A model generated the notes under the pieces. It saw nothing but the letters and a program-made list of their open reading frames with translations, was not told the DNA's origin and searched no databases. DNA of 35,705 nucleotides from a virus, in the IMG/VR virus record IMGVR_UViG_3300045988_017993, one strand, 5' to 3'. Shown here in pieces: positions 3,893 through 14,217 of this stretch. Position 1 is the stretch's first letter; each line of letters opens with the position of its first letter. The translations under genes were made by a program, and so were the position numbers.

Positions 3893-4216
3893 ATGGTAAA
3901 TCAAACAGAGCCAGATTTGATGAACTGGCTTATTACCGTTATTCTTCCTATTTCTATTTCAAGTGCGAGTTTTTATTTTTCAAGCCAGACACGTGCCTCT
4001 CGATTAGAACACCGAATCACTAAATTAGAGGTCGTTGACCATGAAATCGAGAAAATTATTAAAAACCATAATGATCGTCTTGACAAATATCAAGAAGAAC
4101 AAAAAATAATTCTAGCTCTCGTCCAACGTATGGACCATCTTAATGAGAACGTTGTTGAGCTAAAAGGAAATATTGAAGAAGTTAAAAAATTAGTAGATCG
4201 AAACTTGAGAGGATAA
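3893..4216 (+). CDS. Membrane-anchored coiled-coil lysis-cassette protein (XhlA-like / holin accessory, 107 aa)
   Basis: AGGAGG lies upstream. One N-terminal TM segment (WLITVILPISISSASFYF) is followed by a heptad-rich region. The gene is immediately upstream of the holin. Confidence 0.55.
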   Translation: MVNQTEPDLMNWLITVILPISISSASFYFSSQTRASRLEHRITKLEVVDHEIEKIIKNHNDRLDKYQEEQKIILALVQRMDHLNENVVELKGNIEEVKKLVDRNLRG

Positions 4217-5424: not shown

Positions 5425-5453
5425 TTGACTTATAAATGATAATTTTATAAAAT
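5425..5453 (+). promoter_or_regulatory. Sigma-A-type promoter (TTGACT, 17-nt spacer, TAAAAT)
   Basis: Hexamers at 5425..5430 and 5448..5453 with a 17-nt spacer. No ORF follows. Confidence 0.55.
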
Positions 5454-5459
5454 GTAATT

Positions 5460-5581
5460 GGATAACCTAGATACAATTTATCTAGTGCAAAAGGTAAAAG
5501 ACTGATTAGGTTCAGCGCCCTATTGCTTGCGCACACACAAGCATAAGGGAACGTTTTGTTGGGGGCTAAGACCACCCTTTT
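5460..5581 (+). ncRNA. Candidate small RNA unit 1, carrying conserved box A (5499..5523)
   Basis: No ORF. It has a perfect 7-bp hairpin CTAGATA/TATCTAG (5467..5485), box AGACTGATTAGGTTCAGCGCCCTAT, a hairpin at 5518..5549 (TGCTTG/CAAGCA core), and ends in CCCTTTTT. The 3' end is uncertain. Confidence 0.35.
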
Positions 5582-5652
5582 TGATATAATATACCTATAT
5601 CAATGGCTTCCCACGCATACGCGCAGATACGTTCTGAGGGAAGTTTTTTATT
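5582..5652 (+). ncRNA. Candidate small RNA unit 2 (extended -10 promoter plus terminator hairpin)
   Basis: TGATATAAT at 5582..5590 matches the extended -10 consensus TGnTATAAT. A CTTCCC/GGGAAG stem (5607..5612 / 5638..5643) with a structured loop is followed by TTTTTTATTT. No ORF. Confidence 0.4.
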
Positions 5653-5726
5653 TGCTTTGTTTTGATAGAAATGCTACTATATTAATGGATACAGTTAAAA
5701 GCTGAGTCTTCGATAAACTCTCTCTC

Positions 5727-5760
5727 ACCCTGACTTTAATTAGTCAGGGTTTTTGTTTTG
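5727..5760 (+). terminator. Strong rho-independent terminator ending an ORF-less unit 3 (about 5655..5760)
   Basis: A 9-bp perfect stem ACCCTGACT / AGTCAGGGT, loop TTAATT, then TTTTTGTTTTG. Confidence 0.8.
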
Positions 5761-5793
5761 CAAAAAAAATATATAATTTTTTATCAAAAACTG

Positions 5794-5822
5794 TTGACAA
5801 ACTATCATCTATGATATATAAT
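5794..5822 (+). promoter_or_regulatory. Consensus promoter of the acr operon (TTGACA, 17-nt spacer, TATAAT) with an upstream A/T tract
   Basis: Hexamers at 5794..5799 and 5817..5822 with an exact 17-nt spacer. GAGAGG RBS and ATG 5855 lie downstream. Confidence 0.8.
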
Positions 5823-5854: not shown

Positions 5855-6406
5855 ATGAAAATCAATAATGACATCAAAGAGCTAATTTTGGAATATGTAA
5901 GTCGCTATTTTAAATTTGAAAACGACTTCTACAAATTGCCAGGCATCAAATTCACTGATGCAAATTGGCAAAAATTCAAGAATGGAGATACTTCCATCGA
6001 GAAGATGGGGGCAGCACGAGTAAATGCCATGCTTGACTGCCTATTCGACGATTTTGAGCTTGCTTTTATTGGCAAGGCTCAACAAGAATACTATTCGGAT
6101 AATTCCTTGAAATTGAACATGCCATTTTACGCTTACTATGACATGTTCAAAAAGCAGCAACTTCTAAAATGGCTTAAAAATAACCGTGATGATGTCATCT
6201 GCGGAACTGGTAGGATGTACACAGCAAGTGGTAATTACATTGCTAACTCTTATTTAGAGGTAGCGTTAGAATCTAGCCGTCTGGGTAGTGGCTCTTACAT
6301 GCTTCAAATGAGATTCAAAAACTATTCAAAAAGTCAAGAACCTATTCCATCTGGTCGCCAGAATCGACTTGAATGGATTGAAAACAATCTTGAGAATATT
6401 CGATAA
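5855..6406 (+). CDS. acrIIA6: Anti-CRISPR protein, AcrIIA6-like (183 aa)
   Basis: The 183-aa length, the sequence MKINNDIKELILEYVSRYFKFENDFYKLPGIKFTDANWQKF...RQNRLEWIENNLENIR, and the locus (between the lysin and the cro-like gene of a virulent S. thermophilus phage) match my recollection of AcrIIA6. Not verified by alignment. Confidence 0.6.
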   Translation: MKINNDIKELILEYVSRYFKFENDFYKLPGIKFTDANWQKFKNGDTSIEKMGAARVNAMLDCLFDDFELAFIGKAQQEYYSDNSLKLNMPFYAYYDMFKKQQLLKWLKNNRDDVICGTGRMYTASGNYIANSYLEVALESSRLGSGSYMLQMRFKNYSKSQEPIPSGRQNRLEWIENNLENIR

Positions 6407-6518: not shown

Positions 6519-7190
6519 ATGTGGTTATTACTATCCTTAGTAGGATTTTCAGGTTATATTGTTTCTATTGGTGCTTTACTGTGGTCAGTTATCAAAAAAA
6601 ATAAAGATCTACGCAAAAAATCGCTTATCGGTGGACTTCTTGCCATGATTATGTTTTTCATAGGTGCTTTGATTTCACCTACAGATAAATCTGAATCGTC
6701 TGTAGAAACTGCTAAAACTGAACAAACTTCTTCATCAAAAAAGAAAAACGCTAAGACTTCTTCTAGCAGTAAGAAAGAAGCAAGTTCATCTTCAAAAACG
6801 GTTTCTAGCACAGAAACAAGTTCAACTTCAAAAACTTATGACGACGCCGCAAATACAGCATTCGCCTCTGAATTAGACACTAAAATCAACGATGTTTTAA
6901 AGCAAAGTGGTATCACAGATTCGTTTGCTGTCATGCCAAACAGTTCAGTTTTAATAGATGTGGTTGTCCCACAAGATTATAAATACTTACCAAATTCACA
7001 AATTCAACAATTAGCAGATACACTTCTTTATGCTAAAGAAAATTTTTTCCAAGAATGGAACGCAAAACCAGAAAACAATTATAATGAAACATACGGGCCT
7101 AGACTTTACGTAAAATCACCAGACGGTACTACCCTTGCCAAAGAATCTTTCTTTGGCGGTAAAATGAAACGTGTAATAGACAACAAATAG
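6519..7190 (+). CDS. Membrane protein of unknown function (223 aa), co-transcribed with the acr gene
   Basis: GGGAGGAG RBS. Two N-terminal TM helices, a Ser/Thr/Lys-rich linker and a C-terminal domain of about 115 aa. There is no terminator between 6406 and 6519. Confidence 0.7.
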   Translation: MWLLLSLVGFSGYIVSIGALLWSVIKKNKDLRKKSLIGGLLAMIMFFIGALISPTDKSESSVETAKTEQTSSSKKKNAKTSSSSKKEASSSSKTVSSTETSSTSKTYDDAANTAFASELDTKINDVLKQSGITDSFAVMPNSSVLIDVVVPQDYKYLPNSQIQQLADTLLYAKENFFQEWNAKPENNYNETYGPRLYVKSPDGTTLAKESFFGGKMKRVIDNK

Positions 7191-7235
7191 CCCCACACTC
7201 TCAAGCTTCGACAATCATGAGTGCAGGGGCTTTTA
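7190..7235 (+). terminator. Terminator of the acr operon
   Basis: GCCCC..CACTC / GAGTG..GGGGC interrupted stem (10 bp), 18-nt loop, then TTTTA (short T run). Confidence 0.55.
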
Positions 7236-7286
7236 TGTTAAGATGTATAAGAAAATCAGAAATGTATATTATATTTCAAAAAATAG

Positions 7287-7315
7287 TTGACAACGTATAG
7301 TATATAGTGTAGAAT
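7287..7315 (+). promoter_or_regulatory. Promoter (TTGACA, 17-nt spacer, TAGAAT) of small RNA unit B
   Basis: Hexamers at 7287..7292 and 7310..7315. The upstream tract is CAAAAAATAG. Confidence 0.7.
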
Positions 7316-7321
7316 TATTTA

Positions 7322-7422
7322 AAGTGTTAGACTGATTTAGTTCAGCGCCCTATATAAGTGCGTGCACAAAAAGGGAATTCATATAAAAAAAGTCGGCTAT
7401 TTTAGTCGACTCTTTTTTTTTT
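7322..7422 (+). ncRNA. Candidate small RNA of about 100 nt, carrying conserved box B (7329..7353)
   Basis: It lies between a near-consensus promoter and a strong terminator (8-bp stem 7391..7398 / 7404..7411, then a T10 run). There is no ORF on either strand. Box AGACTGATTTAGTTCAGCGCCCTAT is 23/25 identical to 5499..5523. Confidence 0.55.
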
Positions 7423-7555
7423 ATGTCATGTAAACAGCAGTATAGCGTTTTCTATTATGTTATCGATGTCGTGTCGTTTCTCTAACTTTTTCAAATGTTG
7501 GAAACTTTTCTGAGAGATTGACAAAAAAATATTTAATTTTTTTTTATAAAAACAG

Positions 7556-12719: not shown

Positions 12720-14217
12720 TTTCGATTATTACAGAGAACAATTTGCAAGCTCTAGTCTCTCGCCTGGGAAACCTAGCAGCAAAGAGGGAATTAAGAATAA
12801 GCTTAAAGCCTACCGAAACGACTGGTTTGAAAAATTCAAGGAAGAAAATCCAGATAGCAAAGAACCAAAGGCATTGCCAGAATTAGCAGTAGCTAAAGGT
12901 TTAAATAAATACACTCATGTTATCACCCTCGAAAATGGGAAAGTAGCTATATATGACCCAGAGCGGGGATACTACCAAAAAGATTACAGATATGCCTACC
13001 AGCTTATCTATATCTTAGAACCTACATTCAATGAAACAAAATGCCGAAATGTTCTATTTTTGCTATCAAACATGAGCAGGGAATATGAATATAATAACAT
13101 GTATATGGATTTTGAACCAGAATATCGAGATGTAAGGCGTTTTATTCTCGTTAAAAATGGCATCTACGATAAACGAAAGAAGAAGCTGCTATCGTTTGAC
13201 CATAAGTTTATTAATTTTAGTACCATTGAAACAGAACTGGTCGAGAATGCCCCTAAACCAATTATTAATGGTTGGGATGTCGATAGTTGGTTGTTAGATC
13301 TCATGAGTGGCGACAGTGAGCTTGTAGAATTACTATGGCAAGTGATTGCAGCGTCACTTAATGGTAACCATTCTTATCGAAAATCGATTTGGTTAGTTGG
13401 TAACGGTAACGATGGTAAGGGTACGTTTCAACAGTTAATTAGCAATTTGGTTGGATTAAAAAACGTAGCACCATTAAAACTTAATCAATTTTCTGAACGT
13501 TTCGGTCTTGCCATTATCGAAGGGAAGACAGTTATCATTGGTGACGATGTCCAAGCTGGTATATATGTAGATGAATCTTCCAATTTTAACTCAGTCGTTA
13601 CTGGTGAACCAGTTTCAATTGAGAAAAAAGGAGAAAATCCTTACTTAGCGCAATTTAAGAAAACGGTTATCCAGTCTACCAATGCTATGCCAGTGTTTAA
13701 GAATAAGTCAAACGGGACATATCGACGTATCGTGATTATCCCATTCAAAAAAACATTTGGCATCAATGATGACAATTGGGCAATTAAGGATGATTACATC
13801 AATCGTAAAGAAGTTTTGGAATATGTTCTTTGGAAAGCTATTAATTTAGATTTCGATAAATTCAGTGAACCAAAAGCGACACAAGAACGTATGCAAGAAT
13901 TCAAGGAAGAAAATAACACAGTTTATAAATTCCTTAATGAATACTTGTCAGATGTCGTTTCCACTCGAATTCCAGTTAGGTTCTTGTGGGATGTATACCG
14001 CTCATGGTGTCATGAGGGAAATCATACTATACCTAAAAAATCTAACTTTGAAAAAGAGCTGGCACAGAATTTACCAGTTGGTTGGATTAAAGATAGACAA
14101 AAACCTCTTGATTTTTTCAATCCAACTAAAGATAAGCCAGATTATTGGCATGATTTCAATTTTAATTGGGACGAAAACAAAGCTAAGAAAGCAACCGTAG
14201 TGGTCATGGTTACTTAG
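12706..14217 (+). CDS. Phage/plasmid primase, P4/D5-type NTPase-helicase (about 503 aa)
   Basis: Walker A motif VGNGNDGKGT. The ORF track starts at TTG 12700, only 1 nt after AAGGAGG (12692..12698). The in-frame TTG 12706 has 7-nt spacing and is the likelier start. Confidence 0.8.
   Translation: MTTIDFDYYREQFASSSLSPGKPSSKEGIKNKLKAYRNDWFEKFKEENPDSKEPKALPELAVAKGLNKYTHVITLENGKVAIYDPERGYYQKDYRYAYQLIYILEPTFNETKCRNVLFLLSNMSREYEYNNMYMDFEPEYRDVRRFILVKNGIYDKRKKKLLSFDHKFINFSTIETELVENAPKPIINGWDVDSWLLDLMSGDSELVELLWQVIAASLNGNHSYRKSIWLVGNGNDGKGTFQQLISNLVGLKNVAPLKLNQFSERFGLAIIEGKTVIIGDDVQAGIYVDESSNFNSVVTGEPVSIEKKGENPYLAQFKKTVIQSTNAMPVFKNKSNGTYRRIVIIPFKKTFGINDDNWAIKDDYINRKEVLEYVLWKAINLDFDKFSEPKATQERMQEFKEENNTVYKFLNEYLSDVVSTRIPVRFLWDVYRSWCHEGNHTIPKKSNFEKELAQNLPVGWIKDRQKPLDFFNPTKDKPDYWHDFNFNWDENKAKKATVVVMVT

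Follow-up and report, generated by a model that had tools for sequence, protein, structure and literature searches.

RNA mimicry of a host defence component has precedents among phages. ToxI, the RNA of the type III toxin-antitoxin system ToxIN, is a tandem 36-nt repeat that is processed by ToxN, and Blower et al. reportedly demonstrated by experiment in 2012 that phage PhiTE escapes ToxIN through RNA mimicry, by means of a pseudo-ToxI. RNA anti-CRISPRs are phage-encoded solitary repeat units that mimic crRNA. The small RNA genes described here show likenesses to both. As with pseudo-ToxI, a toxin-less phage RNA would be the equivalent of a host antitoxin RNA and could block abortive infection; as with the RNA anti-CRISPRs, a phage would encode, within an anti-defence locus, the RNA partner of a host defence nuclease. 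In contrast to ToxI, however, the RNA is a single-copy, three-helix molecule associated with the HEPN Abi_2 toxin family, for which an anti-Abi role is proposed, and its copies are standing genes in many wild phages rather than laboratory escape mutants. Each gene holds a single unit with no internal tandem repeats, and thus lacks the toxin-processed tandem repeats of the ToxI, CptI and TenpI type. RNA anti-CRISPRs are directed at another defence system, and the RNA has no similarity to CRISPR repeats in Rfam.

A nearer counterpart is provided by AbiF and AbiFCd, type III-like toxin-antitoxin systems in which an adjacent non-coding RNA binds and blocks a HEPN RNase dimer (PMC12373285, PMC12737573, PMC13064643). 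Like AbiF-AbiFr of Prevotellaceae (PbAbiF, 8VZ6) and AbiFCd-RCd22 of C. difficile, the cellular modules examined here combine an Abi_2 protein bearing the RNxxAH motif with an adjacent small structured RNA, and they too are carried by prophages and defence islands. The arrangement differs: the RNA of AbiF and AbiFCd lies upstream, in the 5′ UTR, whereas the AbiD companion is encoded downstream, from a promoter set within the final codons of the toxin gene. Furthermore, the companion leaves the abiF motif (RF03085) unmatched, the AbiD4078 ORF can be cloned alone and is active, and the RNA studied here stands without a toxin.

Among the accessory defences of S. thermophilus, AbiD is the most frequent, occurring in 74 of 263 strains (28%), and its activity has been described as "narrow" (PMC12322248). 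The protection conferred by AbiD4078 is low to moderate (PMC11514479). The site described for the AbiD module in S. thermophilus is the CRISPR3 defence island.

Two copies of an RNA gene on either side of acrIIA6

The window, meaning the whole 35,705-nt stretch of viral DNA that was analysed, is a segment of an S. thermophilus phage genome, and the part around copy A of the RNA gene is 99% identical to phages P7631, P7633 and SWK6. Two copies of the gene, A and B, share a 25-nt box. The RNA folds into a 5′ tail, a hairpin Pa (CUGA/UCAG) and a helix P1 (CCCU/AGGG) around a variable P2. The features of the two genes and their surroundings are as follows, R1 being a covariance model of the RNA.

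5425-5453, + strand: copy B promoter, TTGACT-17-TAAAAT (scan 10/12)
5460-5582, + strand: RNA copy B, about 120 nt (model R1 45.1 bits, E=3e-9; fold z=-2.7)
5467-5473/5479-5485, + strand: copy B leader hairpin
5492-5552, + strand: copy B model core
5502-5505/5512-5515, + strand: copy B Pa
5518-5521/5546-5549, + strand: copy B P1
5524-5529/5538-5543, + strand: copy B P2
5561-5582, + strand: copy B terminator (GGGGG..CACCC U5), stem 5561-5577, weaker than that of copy A
5855-6406, + strand: AcrIIA6 anti-CRISPR gene (PDB 6EYY/6EYX, E=1e-112), between RNA copies A and B
6519-7190, + strand: gene for a 223-aa membrane protein (from the ORF listing), just upstream of copy A
7232-7300, + strand: fossil of an AbiD (Abi_2) 3′ end, reading FMLRCIRKSE, then 10 deleted codons, then MYIIFQKIVDNV and a stop; it carries the -35 box
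7287-7315, + strand: copy A promoter, TTGACA-17-TAGAAT (scan 11/12), identical in the cellular AbiD locus
7322-7421, + strand: RNA copy A, about 100 nt (model R1 63.6 bits, E=1e-13)
7322-7331, + strand: copy A 5′ tail
7329-7353, + strand: 25-nt box AGACTGATTTAGTTCAGCGCCCTAT, which covers the last part of the 5′ tail, hairpin Pa, the CG junction and the P1 5′ strand
7332-7335/7342-7345, + strand: copy A Pa
7348-7351/7372-7375, + strand: copy A P1
7358-7360/7365-7367, + strand: copy A P2, with loop CGUG
7391-7422, + strand: copy A terminator, a 9-pair stem (7391-7411) followed by T10 (7413-7422)

An earlier note on this DNA had proposed, from the letters, a free-standing small-RNA gene with a near-consensus promoter, a unit of about 100 nt and a strong terminator. 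The scan supports such a gene with its own promoter and terminator, the former scoring 11/12 and the latter comprising a 9-pair stem and T10, and transcription of copy A probably starts at about 7322. The note's statement that no ORF is present holds for the RNA, as none of at least 30 aa overlaps 7322-7421 on either strand. The promoter stretch is nevertheless not featureless, 7232-7300 being the remnant of an AbiD reading frame. The recurrence of the box was confirmed: AGACTGATTAGGTTCAGCGCCCTAT at 5499-5523, on the same strand and with two mismatches (23/25), is the sole other match in a scan of the window at up to three mismatches. The reverse strand of the window carries no copy, and shuffles of the window yielded no box match. 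The note was also right that the copies bracket an acr gene, which is that of AcrIIA6 (PDB 6EYY, E=1e-112). Its labelling of the hairpins, on the other hand, was mistaken. CCCT...AGGG, which is P1, occurs in both copies, and it encloses GTG-CGTG-CAC in the copy at 7329 and TGCTTG...CAAGCA in the copy at 5499.

Within the window, model R1 matches copies A and B only. Copy A is 97-99% identical across 20 or so S. thermophilus phage records, and blastn found no match to it in plasmids. In 80 phage records of S. thermophilus, the copy B region follows the lysin gene directly. The promoter scan of the window also places a separate consensus promoter before acrIIA6, at 5794-5822.

The non-coding stretch that follows copy B (5583-5800) is conserved across 278 S. 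thermophilus phage records, and its first 60 nt or so also occur near the right end of the record of S. agalactiae prophage Javan46. It contains two further mini-units that resemble a promoter with a terminator. One has an extended -10 element, TGATATAAT, at 5582-5590, a hairpin, GGCTTCCC..GGGAAG, and T6; the other ends at the terminator at 5727-5750. The third unit (UUAAAAGC, a hairpin and a terminator) bears a vague likeness to the Abi_2-companion RNAs discussed below. The terminator at 5727-5750, ACCCTGACTTTAATTAGTCAGGGT, which closely precedes acrIIA6 and gave no tracrRNA match in Rfam, presumably resembles the hairpin at the 3′ end of the tracrRNA from S. thermophilus CRISPR1 (St1Cas9), the Cas9 that the acrIIA6 product targets.

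On the other side of acrIIA6, the 6519-7190 protein has two N-terminal membrane helices, a Ser-rich linker and a C-terminal domain. This domain resembles, by eye, cluster c8, a 210-aa protein encoded between ImmA and the integrase in temperate streptococcal phages. An ORF of the same type and the RNA are both present in phage CHPC577, with inverted orientation. The product might be of the superinfection-exclusion type and have travelled along with the RNA.

A conserved fold placed 3′ of Abi_2 genes

Scanning for the pattern of the box recovered 114 genuine copies, which stem from IMG/VR phages and prophages of streptococci and from nine or so species of Streptococcus; the remaining genome matches equal the chance expectation for 17 fixed bases. 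The box is present in 58-80 phage records; phage SW13 does not figure among the 58. P1 occurs in the compensatory variants CCCU/AGGG, CUCU/AGAG and CCAU/AUGG, and Pa, elsewhere CUGA/UCAG, is CCGA/UCGG in one clade. P2 is a stem of free sequence, with a loop that is usually CGUG.

Model R1 was built from eight gap-free sequences, and covariation was counted over 35 model-aligned sequences, 32 of them distinct. In this set 95.4% of paired cells hold a pair, against 80% in shuffles and 23-39% when the partners are slid. Changes on both sides are seen at 10 of 15 pairs, and the observed covariation score was reached by none of 500 shuffles, in an alignment that is itself fitted to the model. Folding energies give z-scores of -1.8 for the copy A unit, -0.24 for the copy A core and -2.7 for copy B. 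Since the thermodynamic stability of copy A is unremarkable, the case for the fold rests on comparative evidence. P2 is absent from the variants in L139/L160 and in L140, so the conserved core consists of the tail, Pa, the junction and P1. Many variants are also predicted to form a closing stem, P0, between the 5′ flank and the pre-terminator region; in A-type genes the 5′ side of this stem overlaps the -10 box, so P0 would exist there only in read-through transcripts.

The variants that lack P2 (L139, 6691-6730; L160; L140, 1621-1663) are each a single hybrid gene with a 5′ part from copy B and a 3′ part from copy A, and they show P2 to be dispensable. Their contigs are without the acrIIA6 cassette, an arrangement compatible with recombination between the two boxes.

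Other structures were considered and rejected. An RNAfold alternative around Pa (GUGUU/AGCGC) is broken by the CCGA/UCGG variant and by the type-3 RNAs, and the pairing required for a tRNA T-arm mimic (TAGG..CCTA) is unconserved, the CCCU strand pairing with AGGG. Mimicry of a CRISPR repeat or of tracrRNA by the box RNA found no support in Rfam.

Searches of Rfam at gathering and permissive thresholds, with the window and with the 121-nt unit, returned only terminator-driven noise for the window RNA. For 7305-7425 this amounted to 39 weak matches, sau-5971 (RF02397) not being among them. The abiF motif RF03085 has no match at E<=10 on the 121-nt unit and is absent from 22 related loci scanned at E<=0.1-1. 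Elsewhere, Rfam Spy779816 is matched just short of its gathering threshold (66.4 bits; threshold 67) at 4030-4117 on the minus strand of L002 (Javan406), between a superinfection-immunity gene and the integrase, and a weaker relative overlaps the terminator at 7185-7277 on the minus strand of the window.

In temperate phages and satellites, the RNA resides in the lysogeny module, in the order cI repressor, a gene of 295-297 aa, RNA, ImmA, putative sie and integrase. The 295-297-aa product is Abi_2 by Pfam (E=3e-19) and AbiD by PADLOC, with an invariant RNxxAH HEPN motif. In a protein-side search of viral contigs with an Abi_2 alignment, 36 of 36 loci of the c3-type Abi_2 clade (57-99% identity) had an RNA whose start lies 21-24 nt beyond the stop codon, and the same holds for all six P0026 loci; many of these loci are near-duplicates, and they represent roughly ten distinct variants. 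The -35 box TTGACA of the RNA is encoded by conserved C-terminal ..(I/V)VD.. codons of the Abi_2 ORF, so the RNA promoter lies inside the toxin gene. The RNA is always downstream of the Abi_2 gene, and in Javan427 it is the upstream repressor gene that overlaps the abi start. The genes 3′ of the RNA vary (ImmA, DUF3800, the integrase directly, chromosomal or plasmid genes, a new promoter), while the upstream Abi_2 gene and its spacing to the RNA are constant. The linkage to Abi_2 is obligate in these cellular elements, and RNA and protein have diverged together.

The window itself contains no Abi_2 gene. Toxin-less forms also occur elsewhere: prophages in which Abi_2 has been replaced (by DUF6414, HSDR_N or others) retain 12-41 of its terminal codons together with the RNA, and type-3 orphans located 3′ of lysin genes keep the box, with a compensatory change in P1 and no toxin nearby. 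By sequence comparison, the window RNAs are assigned as orphan members of a 3′-companion sRNA class belonging to one streptococcal Abi_2/AbiD clade.

In gut-metagenome contigs L292 and L293 (949-3391), a gene of the AbiD4078 type stands directly after an integrase gene and a Fic-domain gene, so the module also travels on an integrative element.

More distant Abi_2 genes, at 31-45% identity, have RNAs of different sequence in the same place and with the same layout. They come from two streptococcal satellites (Javan356, Javan543), further IMG/VR contigs, S. aureus, and plasmids of Kurthia, Bacillus anthracis (pXO1) and Vagococcus. Each has a promoter that lies in the 3′ end of the ORF or immediately beyond it, followed by an RAAAGR tail, two hairpins, of which the second is often C(U/C)CU...AGGG, and a terminator. 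Model R1 detects no RNA at these distant loci. The staphylococcal companion is Rfam sau-5971 (RF02397), at 117 bits; in an S. aureus contig deposited as a phage record (L201, 3447-3542), Sau-5971/RsaL begins 11 nt after the Abi_2 ORF. Like the window RNA, it has a promoter (TTGACT..TATAAA) in the end of the Abi_2 ORF, an RAAAGR tail, two hairpins and a terminator, within about 96-100 nt. The two RNAs nevertheless share no detectable sequence similarity, and the window RNA has no RF02397 match. Sau-5971/RsaL is a highly expressed, Northern-validated sRNA described after SA0355, and the papers that we found treat it as 3′-UTR-derived or stand-alone and assign it no function (PMC5826253, PMC3386247). 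We found no published link between Sau-5971 and Abi_2, and no description in the literature of an RNA class placed 3′ of Abi_2 genes. A class of 3′-encoded Abi_2 sRNA partners, with the promoter in the last codons of the toxin, is apparently unreported.

Origin of copy A and nature of the AbiD partner

The fossil that precedes copy A can be compared with an intact counterpart, the 296-aa protein P0010, whose C-terminus is FMLRCIRKSEDYSKNVILTKMYIIFQKIVDNV. The window keeps 22 of the last 32 P0010 codons, with a 30-nt internal deletion. Apart from this deletion, the contigs encoding P0010 and the window agree nearly base for base from the ORF stub through the RNA. The RNA body differs by one substitution, and the T10 of the phage corresponds to CTCTTTCTATATC in the cellular sequence.

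The tie between P0010 and S. thermophilus strain 4078 rests on the published AbiD_4078 primers, which are taken from the supplement of Kelleher et al. 2024 (PMC11514479), where the purpose of the "U" primers is unstated. Reverse-complemented, AbiD_4078_RV equals window 7277-7300 exactly, and AbiD_4078_U_RV has an exact match in phages CHPC926 and CHPC1062, where it falls on the 3′ shoulder of the terminator of the RNA. The third primer, AbiD_4078_FW, includes the sequence ATGCAAC, in keeping with a P0010 that starts with MQR. Primers for other S. thermophilus AbiD groups (ST55, 4021) have no match in the window beyond a chance-like 16/19 at 12749. Other phages retain different parts of the locus: CHPC577 keeps 32 codons of the AbiD ORF; CHPC926 has no AbiD codons and carries a B-type leader fused to the cellular RNA body, with the promoter swapped and the body intact. 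Judged from these alignments and primer matches, copy A derives from an AbiD4078-type locus of S. thermophilus.

A phmmer search of the Abi_2 protein against the PDB gave only noise, so a fold search was needed to reach 8VZ6. The AlphaFold2 model of P0010, which is of the AbiD4078 type, has a pLDDT of 91.5, and only one PDB entry matches it significantly: 8vz6_A, "PbAbiF dimer bound to ncRNA" (E=2e-4, probability 1.0, TM 0.49, full length). As modelled, AbiD4078 is AbiF-like in fold. This likeness to the PbAbiF-ncRNA complex, together with the literature on AbiF, suggests that the companion RNA binds and neutralises AbiD. The RNA gene adjoins the ribonuclease toxin gene at cellular AbiD loci, but not in the window.

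A cloning result calls for caution on this point. The AbiD4078 ORF alone, under a constitutive promoter, is tolerated and confers phage resistance, including in Lactococcus (Kelleher et al., PMC11514479). The reverse primer used by these authors ends at the stop codon, so their construct contains no RNA. As the ORF is both active and tolerated in this form, the RNA of this clade is dispensable for defence, and its absence does not make the toxin obviously lethal. The partner RNA may therefore be a modulator rather than a classical antitoxin.

Possible role of the orphan RNAs

The explanation that we favour, by a narrow balance of judgement, is that copies A and B are orphan AbiD-partner RNAs kept by the phage, which would act as an RNA anti-Abi decoy and keep AbiD neutralised. 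In the cellular module, AbiD would be made along with a partner RNA, whose promoter is embedded in the final codons of abiD. As homology with AbiF-AbiFr and AbiFCd-RCd22 suggests, this RNA would bind the HEPN RNase dimer and hold AbiD inactive. The phage acquired its RNA gene from an AbiD4078-type locus, of which the toxin ORF has been lost as far as the stub that bears the promoter, and it would transcribe the partner RNA at two loci, one on each side of acrIIA6, using near-consensus promoters of host type. During infection, phage-made RNA would top up or replace the host RNA on AbiD, so that the toxin is neutralised and abortive infection fails.

Some earlier suggestions about the box come near to this. 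That it is a functionally constrained part agrees with its conservation across phage RNAs. A protein-binding tag, which the earlier note offered as one alternative, is close to what an AbiD-partner RNA would be, provided that it binds as predicted. The same note knew of no described function; this stands insofar as no Rfam family covers the RNA, but the RNA belongs with the AbiD/AbiF protein-plus-ncRNA modules described in 2024-2026.

Several observations speak against a decoy: the AbiD4078 ORF cloned without the RNA is tolerated and protective, RF03085 is unmatched, the RNA is downstream rather than upstream of the toxin, and the copy A core has a z-score of only -0.24. In addition, copy A is so near the cellular sequence that a recent product of neutral recombination is conceivable. 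Both copies could then be scars of exchanges among phages, prophage lysogeny modules and host AbiD loci, perhaps transcribed but without a role in infection. The near-identity of copy A to the cellular locus, with a piece of the toxin ORF still attached, fits this account, as do the similar fossils left after toxin replacement in prophages and the existence of hybrid and P2-less variants. However, truncation has in every case ended shortly before the embedded promoter (22, 32 and 12-41 codons kept), and CHPC926 has acquired a new promoter with the RNA intact. The B and type-3 orphans have diverged, yet they preserve the box, compensatory P1 changes and promoters and terminators of their own, in 58-80 phage records. 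Promoter-sparing truncation, the promoter swap, the diverged orphans and the number of records suggest selection on the orphan RNAs, and we regard neutral scars as unlikely.

A cis-acting role, as a riboswitch-like leader or attenuator or as a transcriptional insulator against downstream read-through, would be directed at immA-sie-int in prophages and at acr and early genes in this phage. In prophages, ImmA or int genes do follow the RNA terminator within about 20 nt on the same strand, and RCd22 also acts in cis, by premature termination (PMC12373285). The variability of the downstream genes, set against the constancy of the upstream Abi_2 gene and its spacing, argues otherwise, as do the separate consensus promoter that drives acrIIA6 (5794-5822) and the lack of any Rfam riboswitch match, and we consider such a role rather improbable.

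The extreme conservation of the box, the free-standing promoter and terminator and the sRNA-like size could also indicate a trans-acting sRNA whose box is a seed for base pairing with a host or phage mRNA. A single-stranded seed, as the earlier note envisaged, is not what the fold reveals: the box holds Pa and the 5′ strand of P1, both with compensatory changes, and is thus largely base-paired, with covariation. Complementary targets in the phage genome reach 11-12 nt at most, the same as for shuffled boxes and no more than chance, and the RNA occurs in strict association with a single protein family, relatives of which bind ncRNA directly. A seed of this kind is quite improbable.

It is highly improbable that the box is mainly a homology patch for swapping cassettes such as acrIIA6 between phages and host loci by recombination, since this reading, for all that direct repeats flank the acr cassette and that cassette-less B-5′/A-3′ hybrids (L139, L160) and the B-type leader with cellular-type body of CHPC926 exist, explains a consequence rather than the conserved fold, promoters and terminators, and leaves the strict Abi_2 pairing in cellular elements unexplained. 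None of these rivals accounts for the invariant Abi_2 pairing together with the conserved fold, and retention of the RNAs as AbiD decoys thus remains our preferred reading. We are evenly divided on the wider proposition that wild streptococcal phages, both virulent and temperate, carry anti-Abi RNA genes, often beside anti-CRISPRs, and that many Firmicutes Abi_2 toxins have a 3′-encoded sRNA class as their partner.

AbiD occurs in industrial S. thermophilus, in which phage resistance has direct economic value. If the proposed role is correct, a phage-borne partner RNA would offer a simple explanation for the narrow activity of AbiD, for which no reason has been given. It would also represent an RNA anti-defence factor that is invisible to protein-centred searches; the tools of a recent survey gave no anti-defence candidates beyond anti-CRISPRs. 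A second, differently placed class of RNA partners would mean that the protein-RNA pairing of the AbiF/Cas13-ancestor type is broader and more plastic than the one abiF motif of Rfam would imply. If true, the companion class would further give Sau-5971/RsaL a function, and tie a validated S. aureus sRNA to a defence gene.
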